Shown one piece after another: positions 4,215 through 48,578 of a stretch of 62,811 nt of DNA. Origin of the DNA: a virus; IMG/VR virus record IMGVR_UViG_3300047175_000146, positions 1 through 62,811 of that record; one strand, given 5' to 3'. Position 1 is the stretch's first letter. Each line of letters opens with the position of its first letter. The notes below the pieces were generated by a model. It was not told the origin of the DNA, searched no databases, and saw only the letters and a list, made by a program, of their open reading frames with translations. A program made the translations under genes and the position numbers.

Positions 4215-4778
4215 GTGCCGATGTACGCAGCGGGCAGGATGGCGAAGGGGCAGTGTCAGCGCTGCGGCCTTTTCTATCTGCTCAAAGAGCTGGTCATGGA
4301 CGGCTACTACCCGAACATTCGGGTCTGCGCCGGCTGCTACGATCCACCCCAGCCGCAGGAACGTCTGGCGGTCGTTTCTGACGCCGTGGCTTTGTACAAG
4401 CCCACGCCGGACGCCATCTACTTGAGCCCACCGGTTCTGACCGCCTCGCAGCAGGGCAACAACATCGTCCTCACCTGGAGCGGTTTCAACCAGATACCGG
4501 CGCCGGCGCAGACGCTCACCGATGATTTCAGCGCGGCCACCCAGGGCAAGAGGCCGATCGGCTCGAGCGGCGGCGCTAACGTCACGGCCGGCTATCTCAT
4601 CAATCGGTCGACCGACGGGGTGAACTTCACGCAGCTCGCCAATCTCGCGAACACGGCGGATGAGTTCGGCGCGCTGGTGGTCGAAACCAACACCTACACC
4701 GACGTCGATCCGGGCATAGGCACCTGGTACTACATGGTGGTCGGCTACGATGCGACCTTCAACGATCCGTATGGCTAG
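4215..4778 (+). CDS. Virion-block protein with N-terminal Cys4 zinc-ribbon-like motif
   Basis: 187-aa ORF with 'CQRCG...CAGC' at the N-terminus and a beta-rich C-terminal half. Overlaps the next gene by 8 nt. Confidence 0.55.
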   Translation: MPMYAAGRMAKGQCQRCGLFYLLKELVMDGYYPNIRVCAGCYDPPQPQERLAVVSDAVALYKPTPDAIYLSPPVLTASQQGNNIVLTWSGFNQIPAPAQTLTDDFSAATQGKRPIGSSGGANVTAGYLINRSTDGVNFTQLANLANTADEFGALVVETNTYTDVDPGIGTWYYMVVGYDATFNDPYG

Positions 4779-6552
4779 CCGCAATTCGAACATCGTGTCG
4801 GTCACCTTCGCGCCGCAAAGCCCGGCCGCGACGCCGACGTTCACGCCCGCAGCAGGCACTTACAACAGCGTGCAAAGCGTGGTGATCGCCTGTGCCACCG
4901 CCGGCGCGACGATTTACTACACCACGGATGGCTCGACTCCGACGACGAGCAGTGCGGTGTATTCGGCGCCGGTGAGTGTCGGGGTCAGCGAAACGCTCAA
5001 AGCGATGGCGACCGCGGCCGGGTATTTGCCATCGGCCGTGGCATCCGCCAACTATGTGATCAATCTTCCGCAGGCCGCGACACCGGCCTTTTCGCCGGGA
5101 ACTGGCACCTACAACAGCGTGCAAAGCGTCACCATCGCGAGCGGCACGGCGGGGGCGAGCATCTATTACACGACCGACGGCTCGACACCAACCACGGGCA
5201 GCACGCTATACAGCGCCCCGGTGTCGGTGGCGAGCAGTGAGACCTTGAAAGCCATTGCCACGGCAAGCGGCTATACGCAATCGAGCGTGGGATCTGCGGC
5301 GTACGTCATCAACCTCCCGCAGGCAGCGACTCCCACCTTTTCACCGGCGGCAGGCACCTACACCGGAACGCAAAACGTCACCATTTTGAGCGCCACCGGC
5401 GGCGCTGTGATCCACTACACCAGCGATGGGTCGACACCGACCACGTCAAGCCCGGTCTATTCCGCGCCGGTGGCGGTTGCCTCGAGCGAGACTCTCAATG
5501 CCATCGCGGTGGCATCCGGTTACACGCAATCCAACGTCGGCAGTGCTTCCTATGTGATCAACCTGCCACAGGCAGCCACCCCAACGTTCTTGCCCGTGGC
5601 CGGCAATTACGCGTCGGCCCAAAGCGTACAGATTCAAAGCGCCACCGCGGGCGCCACGATCTACTACACCACGGACGGCTCAACGCCAACCACCTCAAGC
5701 ACGGTGTATTTCTCTGCCGTCAACGTTGCCGCCAACGAGACCCTGAAGGCCATCGCCACTGCTGCCGGTTACACGCAATCGAACGTCGGCTCCGCCGTTT
5801 ACACCATCGGTCAATGCGATCCGCATTTCGGCAACGTCGAATTGCTGCTGCACTTCGACGGGGCGAATGGCTCGATGACCTTCACAGACTCGTCGCTGAA
5901 TAATTTTTTCGTGACCGGTAATAGCGGCAGCCCGGCAACGTCGCTGGAAACGTCGAACGTGTTGTACGGTACGGCGTCCGCCAATTTTGGAAATGGATCG
6001 TCGTTTCCCACGGAGTCCGCGTTGGGTCCGGCGACAACGGGTACTAATGCTCCTATACCACTCTCCACAGCGACACAGTTGAATCCCGGCACCGGCGACT
6101 TCACGATGGAGTGCTGGATCAACACTAATAATTTCAGCAACAGCCTATTTGGTGTAATCGGTAGCGGCGGAGCTAATGTTCCAGCCGGATTCGGGACTCA
6201 GTTGATTGGGGGGCCGTTGGTTCAGTACTACTGGTACGATGATAGCGGCACTCAACATTATCGAGAGATCGGTGTGCCGGCAGGATCGTGGGCACATGTT
6301 GCGTTTGTTCGTTATTCGGGAAACATTACCTGTTACGTCAACGGCGTTGCCAGTTACTCAGATGCGTATGCGGGCAATTTTAACCTCGCACCTTATTTGA
6401 GCAGTTCTTATGTGGTCGTAGGATGGGCTGAGCAAGGGTTGTACCAATATTCCGGCCTCATGGATGAGTTCCGATACACCGTCGGCGTGGCGCGCTATAC
6501 AGCGAATTTCCCACCTCCGACCACTGCTTTCCCAAACATCGCGTGCAATTGA
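4771..6552 (+). CDS. Fibre/adhesin-like protein: four tandem Fn3_assoc/CHB_HEX_C-type repeats plus a C-terminal LamG (Laminin_G_3-like) domain
   Basis: Repeats read 'P.F.P..GTY....V.I.....GA.IYYTTDGSTPT..S..YS.PV.V...ETLKAIA.A.GY..S.V.SA.Y.I'. The C-terminus has 'GDFTMECWINT', 'WAHVAFVRYSGNITCYVNGV' and 'LMDEFRYTVGVARY', typical of concanavalin/LamG jelly rolls. Confidence 0.7.
   Translation: MASRNSNIVSVTFAPQSPAATPTFTPAAGTYNSVQSVVIACATAGATIYYTTDGSTPTTSSAVYSAPVSVGVSETLKAMATAAGYLPSAVASANYVINLPQAATPAFSPGTGTYNSVQSVTIASGTAGASIYYTTDGSTPTTGSTLYSAPVSVASSETLKAIATASGYTQSSVGSAAYVINLPQAATPTFSPAAGTYTGTQNVTILSATGGAVIHYTSDGSTPTTSSPVYSAPVAVASSETLNAIAVASGYTQSNVGSASYVINLPQAATPTFLPVAGNYASAQSVQIQSATAGATIYYTTDGSTPTTSSTVYFSAVNVAANETLKAIATAAGYTQSNVGSAVYTIGQCDPHFGNVELLLHFDGANGSMTFTDSSLNNFFVTGNSGSPATSLETSNVLYGTASANFGNGSSFPTESALGPATTGTNAPIPLSTATQLNPGTGDFTMECWINTNNFSNSLFGVIGSGGANVPAGFGTQLIGGPLVQYYWYDDSGTQHYREIGVPAGSWAHVAFVRYSGNITCYVNGVASYSDAYAGNFNLAPYLSSSYVVVGWAEQGLYQYSGLMDEFRYTVGVARYTANFPPPTTAFPNIACN
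4816..5812 (+). repeat. Four tandem 249-bp (83-aa) coding repeats
   Basis: Repeat units start at about 4816, 5065, 5314 and 5563 (each begins ..L-P-Q-A-A-T-P..). The period is exactly 249 nt between units 2-3 and 3-4. Confidence 0.85.
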
Positions 6553-15933: not shown

Positions 15934-16953
15934 TTGCCGGCAGGATGGGTATCAGCAGGAGTGGCAGCGGTGGGCGTGGCATCGAACATCGCCAGCAACC
16001 AATCGGCGCAATCGGCCGCAAACAAGAACAACGCCAACTCGCAAAATCTCGCCGGCGCGCAGAATCAGATGTTGAGCCAAGCCGAGAGCGTCGCCAACCA
16101 GCCGTTCGTGGCGTACACCGGGCAGCTCACGGCACCGATGTCGGCGAACGAGCAGCAGGGCAACGATTTGGCCGCCAGCGTCGCCAACAACCAGGTGGCG
16201 CAGGGCGATGTGCAGGCGGGCACCAACTTGGTCGGCCAGGTCGCCAACAACGGGTTCAGTCAGCAGACGATTGAAAACTACATGAACCCGTACACGCAGG
16301 ATGTGACCAACAATGCGATCACGGCGGCCAACCGCAGCTACGCCCAAAATCTCTCGGCACTCAATGAAAAATCGGCCCAATCCGACGCGTTCGGCGGTTC
16401 CGGCAGCGCTCTGCAGCGGGGCGAGCTCGCCGGGCAAAATCAATTGAATGTCGCCAACATCACGGCCACCAATGATTCCAACGCCTATGACGCGGCAGTC
16501 AAGGCCTGGCAAGCCGACAATCAAACCAAACTGTCAGCCGCACAGGCCTACAACGCCGCCGGCCAGGACATCACCAACATGAACTCGACGCAGATCTCCG
16601 ATTTGATGAAAACCGGCGGCGTCGCTCAGGCCATCAGCCAGACCAATCTTGCCAATCAGTACGGCCAGTTCATGCGCCAGCAGGGCTGGAGCGCCAATCA
16701 GTTAGGTTCGTTGATTCAAGCGGTCGGTACGGCCAAGGGCAATACCAATGTCGCGGCCGCGCCGCAGTCGAACGTCGCCAACCAACTGCTCGGCTTGGGA
16801 TCGACGGTGGCGGGCTTGTTTGGCGGCTCGAGCGGTACCTCGGATCCGTCGTTGAGCGATGCCGACATGTCGAGCCTATCCAGCAATGCACTGTCGAGCA
16901 CGGCACCGGCCTTGGACTCGAGCACCGTGTCCGGACTCACGTCCACGGTCTGA
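15934..16953 (+). CDS. Internal-virion/ejection-type protein (Gln/Asn/Ala-rich)
   Basis: 339 aa with a hydrophobic N-terminus 'WVSAGVAAVGVASNIA' and Q/N/A-rich low complexity. First of three consecutive genes ending in the giant protein. The TTG start is uncertain. Confidence 0.5.
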   Translation: MPAGWVSAGVAAVGVASNIASNQSAQSAANKNNANSQNLAGAQNQMLSQAESVANQPFVAYTGQLTAPMSANEQQGNDLAASVANNQVAQGDVQAGTNLVGQVANNGFSQQTIENYMNPYTQDVTNNAITAANRSYAQNLSALNEKSAQSDAFGGSGSALQRGELAGQNQLNVANITATNDSNAYDAAVKAWQADNQTKLSAAQAYNAAGQDITNMNSTQISDLMKTGGVAQAISQTNLANQYGQFMRQQGWSANQLGSLIQAVGTAKGNTNVAAAPQSNVANQLLGLGSTVAGLFGGSSGTSDPSLSDADMSSLSSNALSSTAPALDSSTVSGLTSTV

Positions 16954-16963
16954 GGAACCACCC

Positions 16964-18367
16964 ATGGCCGCCGGCGCAACCCTAGACACTGAAGACGACC
17001 AGGACGCGATCGACAACGTCCAGCCACCGGCGATGACGTTGCCGACCGCACCGCCCGCCGCGCAGGCCTCCGCCGGCGGCACGGCGCCGGGCTCGGCCGC
17101 CCCTGCATCACCCACTCCTGCGTTGGCGCCGGCCACGGCCGCGACCAACGGCATCGAGGGTCAGCCGCAAAAGAAGCAGATCCCGACCGGACCCAAAGTC
17201 GAGTTCGATCCGAAGAAACTCGCCAAGGTGCAGACCCCCGAGGACCTGGTCGATGCCATGCGCCCGAAATCGCGCACCGACTACCTCGACTGGTGGGAAA
17301 AAACCCACGGCGACATCGACGAGAAGTATGACAACCTGCAAAAACAGCTCGGTCAACGTCCCGAAGATGAGGGCCTGACCCGTTCCGAGAAGTTCGCGGC
17401 GCTGCTGCAGTTTGGCCTGCACTTGATGAAGAACTCAAGCACGCCGACGCCCAATCAGGGCAGCGTGCTGACCGGCACCTTGAGCGATGAATACGATGCG
17501 ATGCAAAAGGCGCATCAGGACAACGTCGCGGCCCAGCAGAAGGATTACGACACGCAGGCCAATGCCATCGAGCAGGGGCGCCAGGCGGCGCTCAAGGGCA
17601 TCGGCACGCCGGCGCAGGCCATGGCCGGACAGCAGGCATCCGACAAGGCGTATGCGCAAGAGACAAAAGACAACGCCGCCGCGCTCAAAAGCGCCAAAGA
17701 CGTGCTGACCGACAAGCAATCGGCGTTGGGTCCGGTCACGTACTCGACTGATCCGAAAGGCAACCTCGTGTCCTTGGTGCGCGATCCCAAGACGGGTGCA
17801 ACTACCGCAGAACCGGTGCTAACGATCGACGGCAAACCCTACCAGGGCAAGGTGCTGGGGCGCGAAACGGGCTCCGGCGTCGAGAAGGGCGATCCGGCCG
17901 CCGTCAAGACGCAGAAGTATCTGATGTCGTTGGGGTATACGGAAAGCGATGCCACCAACATCGCCATGAAACCGAAAACCAACAACCCGAACGCCGACTG
18001 GATCAGCGTCTACAAATCGGCGATCCAGGCCAACGGCGGCGATGACGCGTCCGCCAAGCACGTCGCTGACATTGCGATCTTGAACAACTATGGCGCCGGT
18101 GCGCTTGCCCAGGTCAACAAACCCCTCGTGCCCTCGAGCGGCAAGTACGCCCCGCCGCAGCCGCCCGACAGCGTCGTGCAGGGCATGAAGCCGGGCATGG
18201 TGTATGACTTTGGCGACAAGGGTAAATGGATGAAAGGCTTGGACGGCAAGCCGGTGCTGGTGTCGCGCCCGGGCGGGCGCACGGTCTTGAACAACCGCAA
18301 CGCCATACAAAACCCGGATGCCGCGCTGCCCACCGGCGGCCTGCCCGCACCCAACGCGAGTCCATAG
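16964..18367 (+). CDS. Internal-virion/ejection-type protein
   Basis: ATG 16964 after 'gaggaaccaccc'. 467 aa with an acidic/Pro-Ala N-terminus and a charged helical middle, directly upstream of the giant protein. Confidence 0.5.
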   Translation: MAAGATLDTEDDQDAIDNVQPPAMTLPTAPPAAQASAGGTAPGSAAPASPTPALAPATAATNGIEGQPQKKQIPTGPKVEFDPKKLAKVQTPEDLVDAMRPKSRTDYLDWWEKTHGDIDEKYDNLQKQLGQRPEDEGLTRSEKFAALLQFGLHLMKNSSTPTPNQGSVLTGTLSDEYDAMQKAHQDNVAAQQKDYDTQANAIEQGRQAALKGIGTPAQAMAGQQASDKAYAQETKDNAAALKSAKDVLTDKQSALGPVTYSTDPKGNLVSLVRDPKTGATTAEPVLTIDGKPYQGKVLGRETGSGVEKGDPAAVKTQKYLMSLGYTESDATNIAMKPKTNNPNADWISVYKSAIQANGGDDASAKHVADIAILNNYGAGALAQVNKPLVPSSGKYAPPQPPDSVVQGMKPGMVYDFGDKGKWMKGLDGKPVLVSRPGGRTVLNNRNAIQNPDAALPTGGLPAPNASP

Positions 18368-18370
18368 GCG

Positions 18371-21300
18371 ATGGCCGCCGGCTGGATAGCGCAGGGTCCG
18401 CCTCAACCCGCGGGTCCCGCCAACGATGCGCCCGTGGGCAATGCGCCGCCCGGCAATACAATCGCCGGCGATTGGCAATTGGTGGGTCAGCCCGAGCCCT
18501 TGGATCCCACCGCGATCAAACCGGTCGCCAAGAACGCCATCGAGGACACGCGCTCGATCTACCAGCAGGCGCGGGATTTTGTCTTTGGCCACGATCCAGA
18601 CGCCGATGACACCGATCAGGTGCGAAAGCCGGGCGTGCTGCCCTCTATCGTGGCCGGCGCGCAAGACTTGGATCGCGGCACCAAGGACTTTGCCACCGCC
18701 GGCCCTGATTGGTCGACATTGGCCAAAGCCTACCCGCATATTCTGGCCGCCCAGGCCGAGCGGGTCGGTGCCGGTGTCCAAGAGGCGACGGGTGCGAGCC
18801 AGACCCAAAGCGCCGAGCTGCAAATCGCCGCGCTCAACGTACTGCCGCAGGCCGCGGCGCGCCTGAAATCCCAAGTGCCGGGCCAATCCGGCATCGTGCC
18901 GGTGGAACAACTCGCGCAAGATCCTCTGGTCGAGAAGACCGCCCGGGGTTTGGGGCTCGACCCGGTCGTGTTTGCGTCGCAATGGTCGCAGTACGCCGGC
19001 ATGAGTCCGGAGAAGCAGGCCGATGCCATGGCCGACGCTCAAGCCACATTGGCCGACGGTGCCAAGAACAAAGAGTTGGGCGCCAACTCGCGCTATCAGG
19101 CATGGGCGGACGAGAGGGCGTGGGAACCCTCCGACCTGCTCAATGGCAAGCTCGACCCCTGGACGTTGAAAAGCGTCGCCTTCAACACCGCGACCGCCTT
19201 GCCGGCAGTGGTGGCGACCGCCGGGGCGACTCTGGCCGGTAGCGCGGCGGGCGGCCCTGCCGGCGGTCTGATTGCCGGCGCCACGGTCGGCAGCGCGATT
19301 TTTGGTCCTCAAGGCTACGCCAACGCCAAGGACGCCATAGACGCACAGTCGAGCCGGCTGCTCGAAAAGGCGGATGAGCTTGATGCGGCGGCGCCGATCG
19401 GAAGCCGCCGCGCTTTGAATCCGGCCGCCGCTCTGTTACGCCAACAGGCGGCCGACCTGCAAGCCAGTTCCGACAAGATCGCGATGACCGCCGGCATGCT
19501 GACCGCCGTGGCGTCGGCCGCCGGTGGTGCGCCGCTATCCGCAGTGCTCGCGCGCGCGCCCGGTGGCCAAGCCATCCTCAACCGCATTGTCGGATCAGCC
19601 ATCGCTCAAACCGCCGGCGGCCGCGTGGCCGGCACGGCCATCGCCAACGGCGCCGGCGCCGTGGTGCAGGCCAGCCTGCAAAAGGCGATCGACGTCGGCA
19701 TCGTCCATGAGGATCAGTCGTTGGCCGATGCGCTCAAGGACATCGCCGCCGCAGGCGTCATCGGCGTCACCACCGCGCTTCCCATTGCCGGTGCGCACGA
19801 AATGCTCATTGGCGGCCCACGGGCACAAGCAAAGCGGGACTTCGACACCGAGCAGTTTGCCGCGCAGGCACAACGCATGGCGGCGGGCGGTGCGCTCGGC
19901 GGTGAGCCATCGGCTGCATCGCAGGAAGACTATCCGGGCTACCGCTGGGATCCAAACATCCCCAACGGTACCGATCGCAATGGCAATGCGGTTTACGGCC
20001 GCTTTGTGCCGACCGGGACGAATGGCGCGAACGCTGAGACGACAGCGGCTTTAACTGGACCGCAACAGCCAACCGGTGAGACGAATGCCGATGGCGGTGA
20101 ACCGCTGGGGGGTGCTGGTGGCGGCGGCGCGGCCGGTGCCAGGCAGGCCTATACCGACAAGATGACGGCGCTCAACACGGCCGCCGCCAAGGCTGAAAAG
20201 CGTTCCGACATCACGCTGCAGCCGGAGGAAGAAGGCTGGTCCATCCACGTCAACGGCGAACCGGTGGCCACGTTCGACACGGCCGCCAATGCGCGCGCGG
20301 CGTTGGCGAGTGCCAGAAAACTGGTCGGTACCGCGCCCAAAGTGAACCCGTCGTCGAGCGCATCTGCCGCAACGGCAGAGGCCGATACCGACCAAGGCCA
20401 GTCTGGCGCGCCTCAAGCGCAGACAGAATTCCCACAAAATCCCCCCTCCGAAGACGCCGCCGGCACTAACGCGCCCGCCAAACCCACCGCGGCCGCCCCT
20501 GCGTCGGGCGATGCGAATTTGGACGACCTCGAGCACACGCAGCAGATCGATGTACAGCCCGAGACCGATCGGCGCCAGGACACCGATTTGCGCGCGCGCT
20601 TCGATGCCATGACGCCGGAGCAGAAGTTCGCGGCCGCGTATGCGCACGAGCTGACCGGCATTCCAAACCGGCGCGCGTACGTCGATTCGCCCAAGAAGCC
20701 GGCGCAGGTGTCGATAGACGTCGACTCGCTCAAATGGGTCAACGACAACATGGGGCATCCGTCCGGCGATGCCTACTTAAAGGCGGTCGCCACCGCGCTG
20801 CATCAGGCGTCCGGCGGCAACGCCTATCACATCTCCGGCGATGAGTTCGTGGTGCAAGCCGACAGTCCTGAGCACGCGCAAGCCATCATGGCGGCCGCCA
20901 AGGCTCGCCTCGCCGATGCGACGCTGACTTTCGAGCACCCGGACGGGCGCACCATCACCTTGAAAGGGATAGGAGTCTCGCATGGCACAGGCCAATCTCT
21001 TGAAGAAGCCGATTCCCGGCTCGCTCAAAACAAAGCAGACCGGGAGCAATCCGGCCTCCGCGCAGGTCGCGGCAGCGAACCGCCAGGAACAAGTCGCGGG
21101 TCTGCTCAAGCAGGGTTACCAGCTGAAGAGCGTGGGCCTGCCACCGGCGGCGGACTATCAGGTGGCCGGCAGACCGAAGTCCTAGGCCAGCGCGTCCAAG
21201 CGCCAGCGGTCCCCACCCAGGCACAAGCCGCCGCCGGCAATTACTTCAAACCGACGGTCGAATGGCACGGCCTGCCGATCAAGATCGAAAACGAGCCGGG

Positions 21301-24300
21301 TTCGCAGCGCTCCTTCACCTATCCCAACGGCAATCCGGGGCAACGCACCATGCTCGCCCACTACGGCTATTTTCCCGGCCGTGAAGGCGCTGATGGCGAT
21401 GGCGTCGATGTGTATATCGGGCCTGCCAAGAGCGCGGACAGCGGCAAGGCCTATGTCATCGATCAGTTGCGGCCAGAAGGTGGCGCGTTCGATGAGCACA
21501 AGGTCGTGGTAGGCGTCGGCAGTGCCAAGCAGGCCAAAGAACTCTACCTCAAGCACTACCAGGAAGGTTGGCAGGGGTTCGGCGCGATCACGGCCATGGA
21601 TCACGAGGCCTTGGCCGACTGGCTCGCGCACGGCGATCTAACCCAGCCGGTCGCCTGGAAACCAGTCATCGAGCGTGGCCAGGGGCCCGATGCCCGCTAC
21701 GACTCCATTCTCGAATATCTCGCCCGCCACAAGCGGGGTCTCGACAGCACGGAGGCCGAAGCTCAGGGGATCGATCCGGCCGACATGAAGCTCGCCGCGG
21801 CGCACGTCGGGATACGGCGCGCTTTCCGCAAGGGCGGCATGGGCTTCGATCAGGCTGCTGAACATCTCCATGAGGAAGGGTATCCGGTCACGGATGAGCA
21901 CGGCAACTACTCGCCCAATGTGCTGCTCGAGCGCCTGGCGGACGAGCTCGCCGGCATCAAGCATTTCTCGAGCCATAACCAGACGCACACCGAGGAACTG
22001 GCGCGCGCCGAGCACGAGCGCATCGTCAACGTGCAGGCGGAACTCTCGCAGCGGCAGATCGACCGCTTGAGCGCCGAGCAGATCGAGGCACGCATGGCCG
22101 CGCTCGAAGCGGAGCAGGAGCGGCTTGCGATCCAAGCCGAACGGACCGCAGGCGACGCCGAGGACATGAATTCCATCCCGTTCTCCAAGCGTCAGCGGGA
22201 CCTTTTCGGCGAGCAAAATCACGTCAAGAACGAGATCAAGAAGCTTCAGATCGCCAAAGACAAGAAACGCAACAGCGGCCAGGAATCTCTCGAGACCGGG
22301 CGCCCGGATGACCTGTTCAGCCAGGCACGCCAGCAGATGGACCTGACCGACATCAAGGAGCCACCGACCGAGTACGCGCTCGCCGACAAGGCGAGCAAAA
22401 GGCCGATCAGCAACCAGTTGGATATTTTTGCCCCACGCGCGGTGACGCCGGCGGCCGCGGCGGTCAAGAAATCGGCCGCCATCTTGAGCCAGAAAACCAA
22501 ACTGGTGACGGTCGGCACGTTCCGCTCAGGACACGACAAAATAACCACTTGGCAGCAAGCCGCGCACGTGCTCGCGCCGCTGCGCAAAGGATCGCAGGAA
22601 ACCATGGCGGTTCTGGTCCTCGACAAGAACGGCAAACCGCTGTCGGTGATCCGCGGCGGCATGGGCACGATCAATGGCGCGAGCGTCGAGTACTGGTCAT
22701 TGAGCGGCGCGGTGGCTTCGATCCCAGGCGCTGATTCGGTGTATTTGGTTCACAACCATCCGTCCGGTTCGCTGGTTCAAGGAGAGGCCGACAACACGGC
22801 GACCGCCAAACTGACCGATCTGCTCGATGCCATGGGGCTCAAAACGCACGGCATGATCGTGCTGACGCCGAATGGCGCTAAAGCGTCCTTCGTTCCCTCC
22901 GATCCCAACCTGTTGGGTCACCAAGGTATACCGGGCGAGGTGGCGCCGGGCGGTAAGACGCGCGCGTTGGTGCCGGTTGCCGAACGGCGCTACGCCGCCG
23001 GCAACCGGCAAACAGGGCTGCCAGAAGGGGTGATTGGAACGCAATTGGCCAATCCCCGTGGCACGCGCAAAGTCGTCGAAACCGTCGCGCAGCACACACC
23101 TTCCGGTGTGCTGCTGCTCAACAATCATTATCGCGTCGTGGGTTTGTTGCCGATGGCCGACGCCGCCAAAGCCGCGTTGCGCTTGGGTTCCGATAACACA
23201 GGAGCCTGGGATCTGCTGCGCGCGCTGCACGAAGCCAACGCCAACAACATCATTCCGTATGGTGTTTCCGAAGACGCAGTCAAAAACGTGGTGCGTTTTG
23301 CGCGCGCCGCGGCCCTGAATGCGCCGGATGCCTTCGTCAAAAACGCGACCGGCGCGTGGAACAGCATGCAGGAGTCCGGCTTCGCTCCCGCCGGCGACAC
23401 CTTCAAGCGCACCAAATCGCAGAGCGGCGTCGGCATGCCGGTGGCGGACGTCAAAGCCATCGTCGACAAATTGCTCGGGCATTTTCGCAACAACCCCACC
23501 GATGTGGTGGTGGTGCAAAGCGCCGCGGACCTCGACAAGATCCCTGAGCTCGCCGGGCGCACCGATCCGGACGCGATCGGCCTCTTGGATCCGCGCACCG
23601 GCAAGATCTACCTGGTCGCGGATGAGATGCACAGTCCCGAGCACGTGGCGCTTACCCTGGCGCACGAGTACGTCGTGCACTACGGCCTGCGGGCGCAGTT
23701 TGACGACCGTCAAAACGCCGAGTATCAGGCAATACTTTCCGGAGTATTCAAAGCCATGCCCGCCGAGGTGCGTGCCCGGTTCGAGCAGGCCTTCCCGGGC
23801 CAGGATTTTGCATCCTCGACCTTGAACCAACGGCTGGTGGCGGCGGAGGAAGCGCTGGCTTACGCCGAGGAGCGGTATGCCAACGGCGCGGACATCTCAA
23901 AGCCCGTCCAAGGATTGCTCGAGCGACTGTACACGCTGCTGCGCGATTGGCTGCGCAACAAGTTGGGGTTGGCGCCTAAATTCGACAGCCTGTTCGTCCG
24001 CCGCACGCTCGATGACCTGCGCACGTTTTTGAAGAACTCCCGCAATCGTCCTGAATCGCAGCGCAGTGATGAAGCGCCGGCGGCCGCCAAGCCCCAAGAC
24101 ACGTTCTATTCCGCGCTCGCGCGCGCGGTGGATGCGGCAAAGCGGGACAAAGGCACCGGGCCTGAGTGGGAAGCCACGTTGCGCAACATGACGGGCGTCA
24201 AGGCCGAAGAGATGCAATGGCTGGGATTGAAGGATTGGCTTGCGGGCCGCGGCCGCGTGACCAAGCAGGAAGTTGCCGAGTATGTACACGCTCATCGGGT

Positions 24301-27300
24301 GCAACTGGGTGAAGTGAGGTATGGCGGTAACGACCAGCGCGACGTGTACCTCAACGAGATCCGCTCGCACGGGTTTGATGTCACTGAAGAGTCCGGCGGG
24401 CATCCGAGATTGATTTTTCCGGAAGATTGGGAAGAGGAAGACCCACCGCCGGCCGTCACGCGCGCGTATCACGAACTCGAAGATTTGATGGCGGGCGGCG
24501 ATCCACCGCAGTACCAGGAATGGGCGACGCCGGGCGGGCAGAACTACCGCGAGATGCTCTTTACTTTGCAGAGCAAGCCTTACGGCGTGGATTTGCGCAA
24601 ATCGATCTTCGATAAGTACGAGCCGCGCATCAGACAGATGTACGACAAAGCGATGGACATCTCGCGCACCGACACGCAGGGCGACCTTGATCGTGCCGCC
24701 GCGGCGCGCGAGGTGGATCGTTTGAGAGATGAACGCAATATCGAGGCGGACCGAATCTTCACCGTGCCGGAGCCGTACATTTCGCCGCATTGGGAAGTCG
24801 ACAATGTGGTGGCGCATGCGCGCGCCGATGACCGCTTCGGTCCGCACGGCGAGCGCGTCTATCACATCCACGAGATCCAATCCGATTGGCATCAAGCGGG
24901 TCGAAAGCATGGTTACGTCAGCGGTTTCGATTTAGCCAGACTCAAGGCGGCCTCCGCAGGCGATCCAAGCAACAGGTTGAATCCTAACGCCCCGCCCGAC
25001 GCGCCGTTCAAAACCAGTTGGCCCGAGCTCGCCTTCAAGCACATGCTGCGCGAGGCGGTCGAGCGCGGCTATGACGCCATCTCTTGGGACACCGGTTCGA
25101 CCAACGCCGGGCGCTACAACATGCAGCGGGTGGCAGACAAGATCAGCGTCGCCATCACGCCCAACAAGGAACCGCCGGAATATCACGTGCGCGCCACCAA
25201 GGGTGGCACCGTCGTGCACCAATCCTCTGATTTGAACGAGGAGCAACTGGCGGAACTGTTGGGCAAAGACATGGCGCAAAAGGCGATCAGCCGCTTGGGC
25301 GTCGCCAACGCCGTGTCGACCGATTTTTTGGGCGATGACTTGAAAATCGGCGGCGCGGGCATGCGCGCGTTCTACGACGGCATCCTGCCCAAAAAGGTCA
25401 ACGCGCTGGTCAAGAAGTGGGGTGCGTCGGTCGAAGCGGCCACGCTACCGAGCAAACCGGGGGGTCGCGCGACGATCGAACAGATCGACGGCGGCCATTG
25501 GCGCGTCACCGACCGCGACGGCCGGCATTTCGAATTCGATGATTTCCGCGACGCGCGCGAGTTTCTGGCCGCGGAATCCAAACACAATGCCGCCGGGCCC
25601 GAGGGCGGCCTGCCCGTGCACCTGGTGCGCATCACGCCGGCCATGCGCGATTCGGTGCTCGAAGGTTTGCCGATGTTCAAGAAAAAGGGCAAGGGCAAAG
25701 GTGGTGCGCCGCCGGCCCCTCGAGCTCCTGGACCGATCCGCAAAGGCTATGAAGTCGCTCGCACCGTCGCGAGCTCGATCCCCAACAACGAATTCGTAAT
25801 GGCGTTTCGCCGCATCTTGGCGCCGGCCGGCGTCTCCGAGTTCTCCAGGTCCGCGGCGCTCCTCACGCGCGAGAACTTGGGCGAACTCGCCCAGGCCAAA
25901 ACCCAAGCGCTACACGACCTCGAAAGCTACGCCAAAGCCTTCGACCAGTTGCCCATTCCCGACCGCTATGACTTCATTGACGCCATGGAAACCGGCCAAT
26001 CGCAGCCGCATGCGCCCCTGCAGCGAGCCGCCGACACCATCCGCGGCATGCTCGATGACACGCGCGAGGAGGTGCAGGCTCTCGGCGTCGGGGCGCTCGA
26101 AAACTGGATCGAGAACTACTTCCCGCACATCTGGCAGGATCAAAAGGCGGCATCGAAAGTGTTCCGGCAGATCTTCGGCCGCCGGCCGCTCAAAGGGCCG
26201 GCATCGTTCTTGAAGCAGCGCACCATTCCGACCACGCGCGAGGGTTTGGAGAAGGGACTGCAGCCGATCTCGAGCAACCCTTTGATTCTCGCTTACGCCA
26301 AGATCGTCGAGATGAAGCGTTTCATTGCCGGCGTCAAGCTCATGCAGAAATTCAAGGATGAAGGCCTGGCCGTATTCTTGCCGGCGCACAAGATGATGCC
26401 GGAAGGCTGGGCCGAGATCGAAGATGCGGTTGGCCGGGTGCTGCAATGGAGTGAGGCGGAAGGCGGCTTCGTGATCCGCGGCAAGTACATCATGCCGCAG
26501 GATGCCGCGCGCGTGATCAACAACCACTTGAGCGCATCGGCGCTGGCGAACTTTTTGCCGGCGCAGCTGTTCCGGGTCGCCAGCAACGCCGTCAACGCGC
26601 TGCAGCTTGGCTTCTCAGGGTTTCACTTGGGGTTCACGACCTTGGACGCCATCGTTTCCAAGAACGCGCTCGGCATCGAACGATTGTTGCACGGTGAACC
26701 GGTCAGGGCGGCCGCAACGTTCCTCGAGGCCAACGGCGTGATCACGGGTCCCATCATGAACCTGGCGCGCGGTTACAAACTGCTGAAAGCGTATACCAAC
26801 ATCTCGGGGGCGACGCCGGAAATGCGTCAACTGGTCGAGGCGCTGCAGGCCGGCGGCGGGCGCGTGTCCATGGACATGTCGTTCGCCGCGGCACGTGGGA
26901 TTTCGCCGTTCAAGGGCACCGGTTTTGCAACGCTCGCGGGAGAGGTCAAAGGGGCGCTGACACTGCCGTCGGGACGCATGGCCGAGCTCGGCAAGGTCGT
27001 CGGCGGTTTCCCGCGCGAATATGCGACGCGCCTGTGGCGGGATTTGCAGGCCATGGTCCACGAGATGCAGTGGCCGATCCTGACCGTGCCGCTCGAGATC
27101 GCCGGGCGCATCACGCGCGCATCGACGTCGGTGATCATGGAGCACATCGTGCCGATGCAAAAGCTCGGCGTGTTTTCGGACCTCGCCAGCGACTGGCTGC
27201 GCCGCAACCCGCAAGCCGATCCGGTGGCCATGCACGAGGCCATGCAGCGCATCTGGGATTCGGTCGACAACCGCCTGGGCGAAATGGTCTACGACAACGT

Positions 27301-28396
27301 GTTCTGGAACCGCACCTTCAAGGACGTGGCGCACATGATGGTGCGCGCGGTGGGGTGGAACTTGGGCACCGTCCGCGAGCTCGGGGGCGCGGCCATCGAC
27401 GTCGTCAAACTGCTCGACTACATGGCGCGCGGCGCGCCACCCGAGCCTGCGGGTACAGGCCTCACCAAAACGGCGCAGGCGCGCATGGACTACGAAGCGT
27501 CCAAATCCACCCTGACGCGCATCGCCGAGAAGGCCGGCCATCGCATCACATACACCCTGGCCCTGATCGCCACCACGATGCTGCTCGGCGCCATTGCGAC
27601 CAAGCTCATGAGCGGCCAGGGTCCTCAAGAGATCAAGGATTATTTCTTCCCGTGGACGGGGCGCAAAACCAAGTACGGCACCAAGGAACGCATGTCGATG
27701 CCGACCTACACCAAGGATTTGTATGAGTACGGCACCATGCCTGTGCAAACGCTGATCAACAAGGCCAACCCCATTTTTGGGATCATGCATTCCATTTATG
27801 CCAACGAGGACTTCTACGGCAACCCCATCCGCCATTCGGATGCGGATTTCTGGACCCAGATGAAGGAGGGCGCCTCGTACGCGGCCCGCGAGACGCTGCC
27901 ATTTTCCTACCAGGGCGGCAAGCAGTACTTGAGCGCGCGCAACCAGGAGTTGGGCGATGCGAGCGGCGATCTGAAACGTCAAGTGCTGACCATCGCGCCG
28001 TACGCCGGCTTCGGTCCCGCACCGGCGCGCATCACCTCACCCGACCAGATGGAGCGCTATCAGCAGGAGGAGGAAGAGCGCGGTTGGGTGCGCGGCCTGC
28101 AACGCCAGTACAAGGCGGCGCTCGAGCGCCACGATGAGCCTGAAATAAAGCGCCTGCGGGCCGAGCTCGCCGCGGCCAAGCACAAGGCCAAGCAGACGCA
28201 GGGTGCGATCAAACAGGACCGTTCCAAAGCGCGCGAACAGGCTGACAAAATCGGTGCACTCATCCAAGGCAAATCGCGCGATCAAGCCGTCGCGGCACTC
28301 AAGGACGCCGGCCTGCCGGCTTTTGCGCAATTGTGGAATGCGATGTCCGATAATTTGCGGCCGCGGGTGGCTGAAAGACTAGGAGCCTATGCGTGA
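18371..28396 (+). CDS. Giant (3,341 aa) polyvalent virion/ejection protein
   Basis: Uninterrupted 10,026-nt ORF. Motifs are readable for GGDEF, a pyrophosphatase-like barrel, RadC/JAB (HNHPSG), zincin HExxH, an 'EIQSDWHQ' polyvalent-associated block, and a C-terminal membrane/coiled-coil core. It sits between internal-virion-type genes and the lysis cassette. Confidence 0.85.
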   Translation: MAAGWIAQGPPQPAGPANDAPVGNAPPGNTIAGDWQLVGQPEPLDPTAIKPVAKNAIEDTRSIYQQARDFVFGHDPDADDTDQVRKPGVLPSIVAGAQDLDRGTKDFATAGPDWSTLAKAYPHILAAQAERVGAGVQEATGASQTQSAELQIAALNVLPQAAARLKSQVPGQSGIVPVEQLAQDPLVEKTARGLGLDPVVFASQWSQYAGMSPEKQADAMADAQATLADGAKNKELGANSRYQAWADERAWEPSDLLNGKLDPWTLKSVAFNTATALPAVVATAGATLAGSAAGGPAGGLIAGATVGSAIFGPQGYANAKDAIDAQSSRLLEKADELDAAAPIGSRRALNPAAALLRQQAADLQASSDKIAMTAGMLTAVASAAGGAPLSAVLARAPGGQAILNRIVGSAIAQTAGGRVAGTAIANGAGAVVQASLQKAIDVGIVHEDQSLADALKDIAAAGVIGVTTALPIAGAHEMLIGGPRAQAKRDFDTEQFAAQAQRMAAGGALGGEPSAASQEDYPGYRWDPNIPNGTDRNGNAVYGRFVPTGTNGANAETTAALTGPQQPTGETNADGGEPLGGAGGGGAAGARQAYTDKMTALNTAAAKAEKRSDITLQPEEEGWSIHVNGEPVATFDTAANARAALASARKLVGTAPKVNPSSSASAATAEADTDQGQSGAPQAQTEFPQNPPSEDAAGTNAPAKPTAAAPASGDANLDDLEHTQQIDVQPETDRRQDTDLRARFDAMTPEQKFAAAYAHELTGIPNRRAYVDSPKKPAQVSIDVDSLKWVNDNMGHPSGDAYLKAVATALHQASGGNAYHISGDEFVVQADSPEHAQAIMAAAKARLADATLTFEHPDGRTITLKGIGVSHGTGQSLEEADSRLAQNKADREQSGLRAGRGSEPPGTSRGSAQAGLPAEERGPATGGGLSGGRQTEVLGQRVQAPAVPTQAQAAAGNYFKPTVEWHGLPIKIENEPGSQRSFTYPNGNPGQRTMLAHYGYFPGREGADGDGVDVYIGPAKSADSGKAYVIDQLRPEGGAFDEHKVVVGVGSAKQAKELYLKHYQEGWQGFGAITAMDHEALADWLAHGDLTQPVAWKPVIERGQGPDARYDSILEYLARHKRGLDSTEAEAQGIDPADMKLAAAHVGIRRAFRKGGMGFDQAAEHLHEEGYPVTDEHGNYSPNVLLERLADELAGIKHFSSHNQTHTEELARAEHERIVNVQAELSQRQIDRLSAEQIEARMAALEAEQERLAIQAERTAGDAEDMNSIPFSKRQRDLFGEQNHVKNEIKKLQIAKDKKRNSGQESLETGRPDDLFSQARQQMDLTDIKEPPTEYALADKASKRPISNQLDIFAPRAVTPAAAAVKKSAAILSQKTKLVTVGTFRSGHDKITTWQQAAHVLAPLRKGSQETMAVLVLDKNGKPLSVIRGGMGTINGASVEYWSLSGAVASIPGADSVYLVHNHPSGSLVQGEADNTATAKLTDLLDAMGLKTHGMIVLTPNGAKASFVPSDPNLLGHQGIPGEVAPGGKTRALVPVAERRYAAGNRQTGLPEGVIGTQLANPRGTRKVVETVAQHTPSGVLLLNNHYRVVGLLPMADAAKAALRLGSDNTGAWDLLRALHEANANNIIPYGVSEDAVKNVVRFARAAALNAPDAFVKNATGAWNSMQESGFAPAGDTFKRTKSQSGVGMPVADVKAIVDKLLGHFRNNPTDVVVVQSAADLDKIPELAGRTDPDAIGLLDPRTGKIYLVADEMHSPEHVALTLAHEYVVHYGLRAQFDDRQNAEYQAILSGVFKAMPAEVRARFEQAFPGQDFASSTLNQRLVAAEEALAYAEERYANGADISKPVQGLLERLYTLLRDWLRNKLGLAPKFDSLFVRRTLDDLRTFLKNSRNRPESQRSDEAPAAAKPQDTFYSALARAVDAAKRDKGTGPEWEATLRNMTGVKAEEMQWLGLKDWLAGRGRVTKQEVAEYVHAHRVQLGEVRYGGNDQRDVYLNEIRSHGFDVTEESGGHPRLIFPEDWEEEDPPPAVTRAYHELEDLMAGGDPPQYQEWATPGGQNYREMLFTLQSKPYGVDLRKSIFDKYEPRIRQMYDKAMDISRTDTQGDLDRAAAAREVDRLRDERNIEADRIFTVPEPYISPHWEVDNVVAHARADDRFGPHGERVYHIHEIQSDWHQAGRKHGYVSGFDLARLKAASAGDPSNRLNPNAPPDAPFKTSWPELAFKHMLREAVERGYDAISWDTGSTNAGRYNMQRVADKISVAITPNKEPPEYHVRATKGGTVVHQSSDLNEEQLAELLGKDMAQKAISRLGVANAVSTDFLGDDLKIGGAGMRAFYDGILPKKVNALVKKWGASVEAATLPSKPGGRATIEQIDGGHWRVTDRDGRHFEFDDFRDAREFLAAESKHNAAGPEGGLPVHLVRITPAMRDSVLEGLPMFKKKGKGKGGAPPAPRAPGPIRKGYEVARTVASSIPNNEFVMAFRRILAPAGVSEFSRSAALLTRENLGELAQAKTQALHDLESYAKAFDQLPIPDRYDFIDAMETGQSQPHAPLQRAADTIRGMLDDTREEVQALGVGALENWIENYFPHIWQDQKAASKVFRQIFGRRPLKGPASFLKQRTIPTTREGLEKGLQPISSNPLILAYAKIVEMKRFIAGVKLMQKFKDEGLAVFLPAHKMMPEGWAEIEDAVGRVLQWSEAEGGFVIRGKYIMPQDAARVINNHLSASALANFLPAQLFRVASNAVNALQLGFSGFHLGFTTLDAIVSKNALGIERLLHGEPVRAAATFLEANGVITGPIMNLARGYKLLKAYTNISGATPEMRQLVEALQAGGGRVSMDMSFAAARGISPFKGTGFATLAGEVKGALTLPSGRMAELGKVVGGFPREYATRLWRDLQAMVHEMQWPILTVPLEIAGRITRASTSVIMEHIVPMQKLGVFSDLASDWLRRNPQADPVAMHEAMQRIWDSVDNRLGEMVYDNVFWNRTFKDVAHMMVRAVGWNLGTVRELGGAAIDVVKLLDYMARGAPPEPAGTGLTKTAQARMDYEASKSTLTRIAEKAGHRITYTLALIATTMLLGAIATKLMSGQGPQEIKDYFFPWTGRKTKYGTKERMSMPTYTKDLYEYGTMPVQTLINKANPIFGIMHSIYANEDFYGNPIRHSDADFWTQMKEGASYAARETLPFSYQGGKQYLSARNQELGDASGDLKRQVLTIAPYAGFGPAPARITSPDQMERYQQEEEERGWVRGLQRQYKAALERHDEPEIKRLRAELAAAKHKAKQTQGAIKQDRSKAREQADKIGALIQGKSRDQAVAALKDAGLPAFAQLWNAMSDNLRPRVAERLGAYA
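20630..21060 (+). other. GGDEF (diguanylate-cyclase-type) domain, active-site variant SGDEF, no RxxD I-site
   Basis: The sequence reads 'HELTGIPNRRAY...QVSIDVDSLKWVNDNMGHPSGDAYLKAVATAL...AYHISGDEFVVQ...GIGVSHGTG.SLEEADSRLAQNK'. SGDEF is at 20834..20848. The residues 5-9 upstream are ASGG, not RxxD. Confidence 0.75.
21235..21650 (+). other. Inorganic-pyrophosphatase-like domain (tentative)
   Basis: 'GADGDGVDVYIG' resembles the PPase D-x-D-x-x-D signature, followed by 'FDEHKVVVGV' and 'AKELYLKHY'. Confidence 0.35.
22530..22890 (+). other. RadC-like JAB/MPN domain
   Basis: 'ETMAVLVLDKNGKPLSVIRGGMGTINGASV...VYLVHNHPSGSLVQGEADNTATAKL'. HNHPSG is at 22751..22768. A second, degenerate JAB-like stretch ('VLLLNNHYRVVGLLPM') follows. 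Confidence 0.8.
23560..23760 (+). other. Zincin-like metallopeptidase motif region (HExxH)
   Basis: 'IYLVADEMHSPEHVALTLAHEYVVHYGL'. HEYVVH is at 23663..23680. Confidence 0.5.
24101..25680 (+). other. Large-polyvalent-protein-associated block
   Basis: 'TFYSALARAV...GPEWEATLRNMTGVKAEEMQWLGLKDWL', 'RVYHIHEIQSDWHQAGRKHGY' (24863..24895), 'GGAGMRAFYDGILPKKVNALVKKWG' and 'LPMFKKKGKG' recall blocks seen in giant phage/conjugative-element proteins. This is from memory only. Confidence 0.45.
25740..28396 (+). other. C-terminal ejection-core region with TM helix and coiled coil
   Basis: 'GRRPLKGPASFLKQRTIPT' (26176..26222); hydrophobic helix 'ITYTLALIATTMLLGAIATKLM' (about 27545..27610); charged coiled coil 'ERYQQEEEERGWVRGLQRQYKAALERHDEPEIKRLRAELAAAKHKAKQ'. 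Confidence 0.5.
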
Positions 28397-35879: not shown

Positions 35880-36818
35880 TCATTCGCATAAGCCGTAAAC
35901 CGAACTGCAACCGCTTGCAGGTTCGAGCCTTATAAAGTCTTGCTGGCGACCACCGTGCGCGGTTTCTGCCCATCGGATTCTCGCGTCGATATTGAGCCGG
36001 TTGAAAATCTGCTCGTGCGTCTCGTCTTCCTCACTGCTGTCGCAGAAAAAGGTAGTCCAGCCCCGCTTAGCCGCCATGCAGATCAGTTGTTCCCATTCGC
36101 GGATTCGGTCAACGTGCGCAGGGCAGCGTTTCGAGATTTCAAGCAGTTCGTTCTTATTGGCGTTAATGCAGGGCATACACCCGACGCGACCCATGCCCAT
36201 CGCGTACAGCGGATTCAGTTTCACACCGCGCCCGGTCACAAAGTCCACCGTCTGCTGGGCGGTCCAAGACGCTATCGGATGCTCGATCATCCAGCCCTCG
36301 GCAGCGCGTTCTGAATCCTTAGCGTCCTTTCGGTTCTGGCTCTCATCGCGCCGGATGCCACGCCAGCTCGATAAGTCCCACCCCTCGGCCAGCCGATCCA
36401 TCATGTAGGCGTCGAGCGGGCGTCGCTTTAGCTCCTGGGTGCAGAACTGCGCTTTGCGACTCGGAAAGCGGCCTTTCCAAAGGCATAGGTCTAAAAACGG
36501 ATTGCCGGTCGGATGCAGAACGCTCAGGGCACGCGCCACGATCTCAGGCGGCACACCTTTGGCTGGCCACTTCGTTTCGACGTACAGCCGCTTACCGGCA
36601 ATCTGGCGCGTGAAGTCTGCCTTCACGGTGATGATTTCACCGAACACCGTGGGCATGTAGTTGTTGACGTACTCAAGCGTCAGTTCATGCTCGTTGCCAG
36701 TATCGGCAAAAATGAACCGGCAGTTCTCCCGGCCCACGCGATCCATAGCAAGGAGCGCAGTCGCGGTGCTGTCTTTGCCGCCCGAAACAGAGACGATGGC
36801 GAGGGGTTTGCCTTTCAC
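35880..36818 (-). CDS. PP-loop ATPase of the PAPS-reductase/DndC-like family
   Basis: 'LAIVSVSGGKDSTATALLAM' (SGGKDS at 36768..36785) is the PP-loop. Also 'GIRRDESQNR', plus Cys motifs 'GCMPC' and C-terminal 'GCSSVYGLCE'. Confidence 0.75.
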   Translation of the reverse strand: MKGKPLAIVSVSGGKDSTATALLAMDRVGRENCRFIFADTGNEHELTLEYVNNYMPTVFGEIITVKADFTRQIAGKRLYVETKWPAKGVPPEIVARALSVLHPTGNPFLDLCLWKGRFPSRKAQFCTQELKRRPLDAYMMDRLAEGWDLSSWRGIRRDESQNRKDAKDSERAAEGWMIEHPIASWTAQQTVDFVTGRGVKLNPLYAMGMGRVGCMPCINANKNELLEISKRCPAHVDRIREWEQLICMAAKRGWTTFFCDSSEEDETHEQIFNRLNIDARIRWAETAHGGRQQDFIRLEPASGCSSVYGLCE

Positions 36819-37474: not shown

Positions 37475-37666
37475 TCAGGCGAACAGATCCTGCTGCGGCT
37501 GTTCCTGCTTTTGCCGGTATTTGTGACCTGGCAACTGGTGGAACTTACGCCAAAAGCAGCGCGCTGCAGCTTCGCAATCTGCAGGCTGAACACAATGCGG
37601 CGACCACTCCTTGCCGGTATAGACGCCATCCTCACGGACTTCGGTGCACGGTTTCAGGGAAGGCAT
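37475..37666 (-). CDS. Small Cys-containing hypothetical protein
   Basis: 63-aa ORF overlapping the end of the repeat-protein gene, in operon context. Confidence 0.35.
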   Translation of the reverse strand: MPSLKPCTEVREDGVYTGKEWSPHCVQPADCEAAARCFWRKFHQLPGHKYRQKQEQPQQDLFA

Positions 37667-38391: not shown

Positions 38392-38684
38392 TACGACTTC
38401 CACGGCGCCTTCTCCCACGCCTCGACCGCTTCAGGCGTGCACACCGCGACACTGGTGATGTCGCGCAGTTCGAGGTCCGCCGCGGGCCCGATCCTCGATC
38501 CCGACAACGGTCCGAACTTCGCAAGGCCCAGAAAGCCTTTTTGCTGCGGCGGCCAATAGATGCAATTGCGTGCCGCGCGCAGTTTGATGATCGCGCCCTC
38601 GGTCTCCATCGCGTAGCCAAAAAACACTCCGCGATGGCTGGTCGTCACCAGCACTGCGCGTTCCTGTTGCTCTTTATTTATCAC
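38391..38684 (-). CDS. Hypothetical protein
   Basis: 97-aa ORF 'MINKEQQERAVLVTTSHRGVFFGYAMETEGAIIKLRAARNCIYWPP...' with RBS 'aggagaccgaag' before the GTG/ATG region. Confidence 0.55.
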   Translation of the reverse strand: MINKEQQERAVLVTTSHRGVFFGYAMETEGAIIKLRAARNCIYWPPQQKGFLGLAKFGPLSGSRIGPAADLELRDITSVAVCTPEAVEAWEKAPWKS

Positions 38685-48565: not shown

Positions 48566-48578
48566 CAGCCGCTGACAG
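48562..48578 (+). promoter_or_regulatory. Recurrent 17-nt intergenic element, copy 3 (CTGACAGCCGCTGACAG), TAATCT at +23..+28
   Basis: Starts at the stop codon of duplicated copy 2, 62 nt upstream of the portal start 48640. Confidence 0.5.

Follow-up and report, generated by a model that had tools for sequence, protein, structure and literature searches.

A compact GGDEF module without the RxxD inhibitory site, beside a pyrophosphatase domain, in a giant phage polyvalent protein

Introduction

Does a phage carry, inside a protein that may travel in its virion, a working enzyme for the synthesis of cyclic di-GMP (c-di-GMP), the main switch of bacteria between motile and biofilm states? The question is raised by the IMG/VR virus record IMGVR_UViG_3300047175_000146, whose 62,811 nucleotides (positions 1 to 62,811; the whole stretch analysed, hereafter the window) include a giant open reading frame (ORF) of 10,026 nt (18371..28396, + strand) encoding a protein of 3341 aa. 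An earlier reading of this DNA, made from the letters alone (the sequence-only reading), had noticed in that protein a GGDEF domain with the motif SGDEF. Based on the ORF list, Pfam and PHROG matches, relatives and synteny, we regard the giant protein as a polyvalent protein and as a probable internal-virion or ejection protein. With a confidence only somewhat better than even, we favor the reading that its GGDEF module is a diguanylate cyclase without sensor domain and without the RxxD inhibitory site (I-site), which would be ejected as part of the polyvalent protein, pair, and make c-di-GMP while a fused pyrophosphatase would remove the inorganic pyrophosphate (PPi).

GGDEF domains in polyvalent proteins of phages and prophages have been reported before, in a study that calls them "not very widespread" and proposes their injection and a possible synthesis of cyclic nucleotides, which would disturb host responses (Iyer, Burroughs, Anand, de Souza & Aravind 2017, J Bacteriol, PMC5512222). 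The sequence-only reading had treated the domain as unusual, which does not hold given these descriptions and the stand-alone phage genes already annotated as GGDEF.

Results

The peptide quoted by the sequence-only reading for positions 20630-21060 is present there exactly, in frame +2, and represents aa 754-897 of the 3341-aa ORF. The GGDEF domain was thus correctly located, while the conserved module proved to be wider, spanning aa ~731-906 (20561..21088, + strand) as delimited by the envelope of a clade-specific hidden Markov model (HMM), by conservation, by an AlphaFold2 (AF2) model, by Foldseek and by the Pfam core. This compact module includes clade-specific Arg-rich helices at its N-terminus and a clade-specific C-terminal tail. 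It is bordered on both sides by low-complexity linkers rich in Ala, Pro, Gly and Gln, a beads-on-a-string layout typical of polyvalent proteins. The core, aa 777-891, matched PF00990 over profile positions 33-158 of 161 (E = 2.2e-11; 44.2 bits vs a gathering cutoff of 23.8). The match begins only at profile position 33 because the stretch from the NRRAY turn to strand beta1 is ~10-15 residues shorter than in canonical domains. A phmmer search of the Protein Data Bank (PDB) with the domain returned 36 sequences, whose names, with few exceptions, denote diguanylate cyclases or GGDEF-domain proteins (WspR, DosC, DgcZ, PleD and TpbB among them). For aa 735-915, an AF2 model derived from six sequences had a mean pLDDT of 90.8 and a pTM of 0.84. 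All 50 PDB entries listed by Foldseek for this model were GGDEF-domain proteins, mostly diguanylate cyclases (probability 1.00, TMq 0.47-0.64), including SiaD, a T. maritima GGDEF domain (4urg/4urs), WspR, PleD and DgcB. The identity of the domain is therefore real and well beyond chance.

The module belongs to a large clade. No more than eight homologues came from a word-indexed search; five of them were stand-alone proteins of ~180-230 aa with 43-46% identity, which share the deletion and carry H-I-[SA]-G-D-E-F as their motif. A profile search of 1.84 billion cluster representatives, in turn, revealed at least 658 clusters (50% identity) at E<=1e-30. Most proteins in the best 150 of these 658 clusters measure 1000-6367 aa, and two GGDEF copies in tandem occur in nine of the same 150 (P0010, P0011 and P0009, with copies at aa 548-764 and 761-971, among others). 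Such tandem copies could form an intramolecular catalytic dimer, and they hint at a need of the module to dimerize. In IMG/VR, 35 viral contigs encode the domain, and for 32 of them it lies in a stop-to-stop ORF of at least 968 aa, up to >4400 aa. Among GenBank phages the clade is represented solely by stand-alone genes of 156 aa in Yuavirus (YuA gp44, MP1412, PaSz-4 and others) and Vojvodinavirus (LK3, CN1, FP1, MW2). They already bear the annotation "diguanylate-cyclase GGDEF domain protein" and adjoin SprT-like and antirestriction genes. Phage GGDEF proteins are also found in BFVD. Two further stand-alone members of ~230 aa, P0001 and P0003 (contigs L001, 6001-6705, and L002, 2970-3650), lie in an apparently cellular context in metagenome-assembled genomes (MAGs) of Chromatiales/Gammaproteobacteria, with Exo_endo_phos, glycosyltransferase, GlgC-like NTP transferase and ferritin genes among their neighbors.

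Residues of the active site were mapped by HMMER alignments to WspR, DosC and 8wcn and are compared with PleD by its numbering. Conservation was evaluated on 159 domains aligned to the clade HMM and not more than ~50% identical in pairwise comparison; motifs were counted on 146 clade domains. In PleD, D327 and D329 bind metal, K332 and K442 contact the phosphates, and R366 contacts the substrate. Specificity for guanine, and thereby GTP, is set by PleD N335 and D344 (PMC7186502). All of the following positions lie on the + strand. The metal-binding DxD is D783-V-D785 (20717..20725; PleD D327/D329), with D783 invariant (100%) and D785 kept in 96% across the 159 domains. K788, N791 and D800 (20732..20770) correspond to K332, N335 and D344, that is, to a phosphate contact and the guanine-specifying Asn and Asp; K788 is kept in 97% and N791 in 100%, and the position of D800 holds Asp in 92% and Asn in 6%. 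The active-site hairpin is H820-I-S822-G-D-E-F826 (20828..20848), in which S822-F826 equals PleD G368-GEEF372 and His occupies the position of R366. G-D-E-F is conserved in ~100% (Tyr replaces Phe in eight domains). The motif reads SGDEF in 119 of the 146 counted domains, GGDEF in 21, AGDEF in five and GGEEF in one, so that its first residue is Ser in 119, Gly in 22 and Ala in five; two residues before it stands His in 131 and Arg in 15. K888, the counterpart of the phosphate-binding K442, is found in 100% of the non-gap sequences and opens the clade-specific tail K888..R891-E..G895.R897-A.R900-G..P-P905 (21032..21085). This tail, K..RE..G.RA.RG..PP in general form, is strongly conserved in the clade and recurs in the stand-alone Yuavirus and Vojvodinavirus proteins. 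Considering the phosphate-contacting positions together (PleD K332, R366, K442 and R446), K788 and K888 are kept, H820 stands at R366, and KxxGRN has become K888-A-D-R891-E, with R891 one position earlier. The earlier claim that the DxD, the Asn and Asp, and the D-E-F are retained, with the first Gly of the motif changed to Ser, is borne out, each landmark lying at its homologous position and being 92-100% conserved in the 159 relatives. As for this Ser, the SGDEF variant of Pectobacterium ECA3270 is active, as cited in PMC3974145.

At the place of the RxxD site the module reads A813-S-G-G816 (20807..20818, + strand). In the alignment with WspR, the I-site Arg falls within a 3-residue deletion and the Asp is aligned to G816. 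The absence of RxxD and the residues ASGG had been predicted correctly, and the loss extends to the clade, where the canonical I-site is present in only 3/146 domains and missing in 143/146. The module is therefore likely to escape product inhibition, as judged from the residues at this site. However, a conserved Arg-rich motif, RRx[D/N]xxxR, lies ~85 residues upstream of SGDEF in 116/146 members, as part of the N-terminal signature (E/D)RRx(D/N)xxxR(K)(R)V..M(S/T)PEE, so that the absence of product inhibition is not certain.

The conservation of catalytic, metal and guanine residues at 92-100% across 159 domains argues for selection on catalysis, and indicates that the clade would be an enzyme under purifying selection and not a degenerate GGDEF. 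A degenerate, non-catalytic domain was considered as a candidate in its own right and is unlikely, all catalytic residues being conserved. More broadly, the module might not be a cyclase at all, but a structural module or one that binds GTP or c-di-GMP, or else a palm nucleotidyltransferase of the Thg1 or Cas10 kind acting on nucleic acid or protein, with its Arg-rich extensions holding the polymer. Such a role would agree with the two conserved Arg-rich extensions, RRx[D/N]xxxR (116/146) and the tail R..G.RA.RG..PP, which canonical diguanylate cyclases lack, as well as with the deletion after NRRAY, the change of R366 to His and the lack of an obvious dimerization domain; moreover, other functions have been described for degenerate GGDEF domains (PMC3974145). 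We nevertheless consider it very improbable, since the catalytic, metal and guanine residues for GTP binding and Mg2+ catalysis are retained and strongly conserved, and since the nearest structures listed were without exception genuine GGDEF domains and neither Cas10 nor Thg1.

If the module is a cyclase, its product deserves attention. An active enzyme could make another or an additional product (cyclic GMP-AMP (cGAMP), pppGpG or a further cyclic oligonucleotide), or flood the cell with c-di-GMP, and thereby jam, decoy or pre-empt nucleotide-based immunity such as the cyclic-oligonucleotide-based antiphage signaling system (CBASS), Panoptes-like guards or type III CRISPR. GGDEF-fold enzymes making other dinucleotides exist, e.g. 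mCpol/OptS, with a specificity that depends on Asn/Ser, and counter-defense-type domains such as ART-PolyVal are found next to the module in relatives. In addition, the giant protein matches DarB-like antirestriction families, and the stand-alone homologues of Yuavirus and Vojvodinavirus lie beside antirestriction genes. Interference with host nucleotide signaling was proposed for GGDEF domains of polyvalent proteins in the corresponding section of Iyer et al. (PMC5512222). On the other side, N791 and D800 are kept (in 100% and 92% of the clade, respectively, Ser not being among the three commonest residues at the position of D344), from which GTP+GTP chemistry is predicted, and neither a sponge for cyclic nucleotides nor an effector partner turned up in the vicinity. 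We rate this alternative as unlikely. The specific assignment to the cGAMP-producing Hypr-GGDEF type was rejected: D800 is retained, and Ser is not among the three commonest residues of its column.

The favored cyclase reading gains from the domain that follows. The GGDEF module is succeeded after 22 aa by an InPase domain (aa 950-1085; 21218..21625, + strand; Pfam PF18823, 143 bits, full-length match), which is the polyvalent-protein variety of family I inorganic pyrophosphatases and has the acidic cluster DGDGVDV at aa 1008-1014. A word-indexed search with this domain returned only 7 short proteins. InPase is present in 49 of the 159 clade proteins and directly neighbors the GGDEF domain (linker <=150 aa) in 40 of these 49. 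The order is GGDEF>InPase in 21 and InPase>GGDEF in 19, including six cases with touching envelopes, and the relatives P0016, P0021, P0022 and P0045 are among these pairs. Random placement within the same proteins yielded 9.5 +/- 2.2 adjacent pairs against the 40 observed, with a maximum of 16 in 500 trials, a significance that is overstated because the test ignores the relatedness of the proteins. The occurrence of both domain orders argues for a functional coupling of the two domains. A pyrophosphatase partner also fits the chemistry, as two GTP are converted to c-di-GMP and two PPi. In pointing to an NTP reaction that releases PPi it speaks against the non-cyclase alternative as well, with the limit that other nucleotidyl transfers would fit too. 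In general terms, a removal of PPi from nucleotidyltransferase reactions by InPase domains is suggested in the pertinent section of Iyer et al. 2017 (PMC5512222). Together, these data suggest that GGDEF and InPase may act as a cyclase-pyrophosphatase pair. The GGDEF domain often has further neighbors, namely ART-PolyVal, which follows it immediately in 36 flanks, and a domain resembling methyltransferases that is recognized by weak, below-cutoff Pfam matches only.

Further downstream, the same chain carries a RadC-like JAB domain (aa 1391-1507; 22541..22891, + strand; Pfam PF04002, 50.6-55.3 bits), so that GGDEF, InPase and RadC are all found by Pfam-A in one protein. With several unrelated effector domains, a PolyVal-type signature included, in a single phage polypeptide, the giant ORF is a polyvalent protein. 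It matches the PHROG family "DarB-like antirestriction" and several families of giant proteins. Full-length relatives (P0021, P0017 and P0061) are 45-58% identical, and the gene is syntenic in the IMG/VR contigs L005-L007, L008, L010 and L016, the nearest of which, L005 (65.5 kb), encodes an orthologue of 3613 aa. No PDB, PHROG or Pfam match was found for the N-terminal 720 aa. As a separate observation, the motif HEYVVH (HExxxH) occurs at 23663-23680 (aa 1765-1770), in a region that is kept in ~25 relatives and has no family match.

The best-conserved part of the protein is a C-terminal, all-alpha module of ~890 aa (aa 2451-3341; 25721..28393, + strand) with one predicted transmembrane helix at aa 3059-3080. 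Its identity is 65% in L005 and 47-49% in L008, L010 and L016. The AF2 model reached pLDDT 81 and pTM 0.80, and no match to the module was obtained by PDB profile search, by Foldseek against the PDB, by PHROG scan or in Pfam. We found 111 homologues, mostly of 1000-1500 aa and on phage-sized contigs, which combine the module with varied N-terminal cargo: SLT lytic transglycosylase, ART-PolyVal, ddrB-ParB, PBECR1, GNAT and Zeta toxin. One SLT-fused homologue is encoded downstream of P22-type coat and Phage_stabilise genes, that is, in the ejection-protein slot of podoviruses. The resemblance to characterized ejection proteins (T7 gp14-16, P22 gp7/20/16, N4 virion RNA polymerase) is positional and architectural, as neither its N-terminal 720 aa nor its C-terminal 890 aa showed homology to them in PDB, PHROG and Pfam. 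We infer that the C-terminal module serves for virion anchoring and ejection, and propose it as a candidate new family of ejection-protein scaffolds.

The gene neighborhood points in the same direction. A DNA ejection protein homologue is encoded at 15934..16953 (+ strand; phrog_4287, E 1e-10) and is syntenic with the giant gene in seven related viral contigs. It is followed by a 502-aa ORF immediately upstream of the giant gene (16859..18367, + strand), which is 53-56% identical in L005-L007 and has no Pfam or PHROG match. The giant gene ends the structural block, and the order of ejection homologue, 502-aa ORF and giant gene is kept in related viral contigs. The InPase domain, moreover, is homologous to the C-terminal domain of the solved phage portal 9b41, and its type occurs in many phage proteins annotated as portal, minor head, internal head or DarB-like. 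Given the ejection-homologue neighbor, the SLT fusion in a P22-like slot and the InPase on portal 9b41, packaging into and ejection from the virion is the most economical reading, and the giant protein is probably carried in the virion.

A cyclase could also do its work elsewhere: in the producer or lysogenic cell during late expression, after proteolytic release, or in a phage that does not package the giant protein. An unregulated diguanylate cyclase would be active once folded, and the low-complexity linkers around the module could be cleaved. In Yuavirus and Vojvodinavirus, the stand-alone genes have non-structural neighbors and presumably find their expression in the infected or lysogenic cell, and lysogens of LK3 show a hyper-biofilm phenotype, a correlative observation only. 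Against this stand the position of the giant gene at the end of the structural operon near the ejection homologue, the SLT-fused C-terminal module in the P22-like ejection slot, and the rule that domains of this clade are embedded in giant proteins. We hold an action outside the virion route to be rather unlikely, and continue with delivery by the virion as the favored reading.

The window ends in a perfect direct repeat of 127 nt (1-127 = 62685-62811), leaving a unit length of 62,684 bp; it is therefore a complete phage genome, whether its assembly is circular or its ends are redundant. Among its products are TerS and TerL, a major head protein, a virion structural protein and two proteins resembling SU10 adaptors, and these adaptor-like proteins suggest that this tailed phage is a podovirus. 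No tRNAs were found in the window. The nearest relatives come from metagenomic contigs and from Gammaproteobacteria MAGs. Among GenBank phages, neither megablast with the giant gene nor tblastn with the first 720 aa and the last 941 aa of its product gave a match, and no characterized phage with virion proteomics can thus be linked to the giant protein.

The sequence-only reading had further credited this genome with three polysaccharide-active enzymes. The glycoside hydrolase family 5 (GH5) cellulase is present where transcription runs leftward (38775-40166, - strand; Pfam Cellulase, 112 bits), whereas neither the pectate lyase nor the SGNH esterase was found by Pfam in a scan of 30 other window ORFs; the polysaccharide context claimed earlier is thus borne out in part. 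Adjoining the GH5 gene, an ORF at 37654-38418 (- strand) has a weak TrAA12-like match and contains a dense periodic repeat of 12/18 nt with ~21 overlapping copies (37959-38423). A 600-aa protein (4750-6552) with four CHB_HEX_C_1/Fn3-associated repeats and a Laminin_G_3 (ConA-like) domain is probably a carbohydrate-binding tail or decoration protein. An Asp/Asn beta-hydroxylase-like gene (PF05118; 14931-15923) lies within the structural/ejection block and is found beside the ejection homologue in six related viral contigs. Just past the terminase genes, a protein with a phosphoadenosine phosphosulfate (PAPS) reductase domain (35880-36818, - strand; PF01507, 70 bits) may serve in DNA or nucleotide modification. 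Finally, a tandem duplication at 48215-48564, consisting of two 175-nt copies with 100% identity, overlaps the start of two antisense ORFs (48529-51279, - strand, and 48640-51300, + strand), both without family match.

Discussion

GGDEF domains in polyvalent proteins have been known since 2017, and stand-alone genes have been annotated since YuA/MP1412; the locus described here is thus not a new kind of system. What our analysis adds is the size of the clade and its signature, the clade-wide loss of the I-site, the adjacency of GGDEF and InPase, and the link of the carrier protein to a C-terminal module unmatched in the PDB and located in the ejection slot. As in the polyvalent proteins of Iyer et al. 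2017 (PMC5512222), as far as they are presented in the sections drawn on here, GGDEF is combined with unrelated enzymes, in our case InPase (PF18823) and RadC/JAB, the protein is predicted to be injected, and relatives carry ART-PolyVal. Three differences from the same sections (PMC5512222) emerge. The GGDEF domain, "not very widespread" there, forms a dedicated compact clade here with at least 658 clusters; RadC, confined there to the polyvalent proteins of conjugative elements, occurs here in a phage polyvalent protein; and neither the GGDEF-InPase adjacency nor the clade signature is described in them.

Known phage counterparts of the module are the stand-alone proteins of Yuavirus and Vojvodinavirus (including the Bordetella phages LK3, CN1 and FP1). 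At 35-41% identity they share DSLKW[VI]ND, [SA]GDEF, the absence of the I-site and the tail K..RE.SG.RAARG..PP. They differ in being encoded by separate 156-aa, non-structural genes and not within a virion protein, and in having Arg instead of His before the motif; neither the RRxD helices of the N-terminus nor the PDG beta-hairpin is present in them. With PleD, WspR, DgcZ and SiaD the module shares the fold and the same catalytic, metal and guanine residues, and with ECA3270 the motif SGDEF. Unlike canonical diguanylate cyclases it has no sensor or receiver domain, no RxxD, a shorter segment between NRRAY and beta1, His at R366, an altered KxxGRN, and a giant phage protein as its context. The carrier protein, in turn, resembles the ejection proteins of podoviruses (T7 gp16-type SLT fusions, the N4 virion RNA polymerase and P1 DarB) in its very large size, its place at the end of the structural module, its SLT-carrying homologues and its ejection-homologue neighbor. 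It differs from them in that its C-terminal module has no sequence or fold similarity to solved ones and in that its cargo is a nucleotide-signaling enzyme instead of a polymerase or muralytic enzyme.

We propose the following course of events. The giant protein would be made late, packaged in the capsid via its C-terminal module and ejected with the DNA into the next host, as its gene position and the SLT-fused homologues suggest. In the cytoplasm, two GGDEF modules would pair, possibly from separate ejected copies; some relatives carry tandem copies in one chain. By homology, GTP would be bound via N791 and D800 at the base, K788, K888 and H820 at the phosphates, and D783 and D824 through Mg2+, to yield c-di-GMP and two PPi. 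The InPase domain 22 residues downstream may then hydrolyze the PPi and pull the reaction forward, as its conserved adjacency suggests. With the RxxD I-site and a sensor domain both absent, output would have no feedback limit. The pay-off is speculative: the host might be switched to a sessile, matrix-producing state with pilus and flagellum off, for instance to the effect of superinfection exclusion, or nucleotide-based immunity might be perturbed.

Several points weigh against this proposal. The domain is divergent (44 bits to Pfam) and lacks the helix between NRRAY and beta1; it has His in place of the substrate-contacting R366 of PleD and KxxRE in place of KxxGRN; and the module is present in single copy, with no dimerization element or domain recognized. 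Only about one third of clade members contain InPase, so that the coupling is not obligatory, and the adjacency statistics are inflated as described. Diguanylate cyclases are slow enzymes, with turnover numbers roughly in the per-minute range, and a virion holds few copies of its ejection proteins, so that little c-di-GMP may be produced during the first minutes. Moreover, a diguanylate cyclase without regulation would already act in the producer cell, ahead of its packaging. Our literature searches yielded no biochemical or proteomic evidence for any member of the clade, nor for activity or virion delivery of any phage GGDEF protein, and retrieved annotation-level mentions and one correlative biofilm phenotype only.

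For the clade as a whole a bolder picture can be drawn, which we put forward as possible and hold tentatively: a feedback-free cyclase specialized to phages, with a dedicated pyrophosphatase as its functional partner, would be brought along ready-made in virions and, once ejected, might rewrite the c-di-GMP state of the host or decoy its nucleotide immunity before any phage gene is expressed. The module offers a defined target for biochemistry, ~180 aa alone or ~370 aa with InPase, and might be of use as a minimal unregulated diguanylate cyclase tool. If it is active and delivered by the virion, c-di-GMP would be manipulated from the first seconds of infection by a preformed enzyme, as was predicted in 2017. 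Should this prove true, a second-messenger synthase would for the first time have been demonstrated to be delivered by virions, and it would be one that is widespread in uncultured phages.

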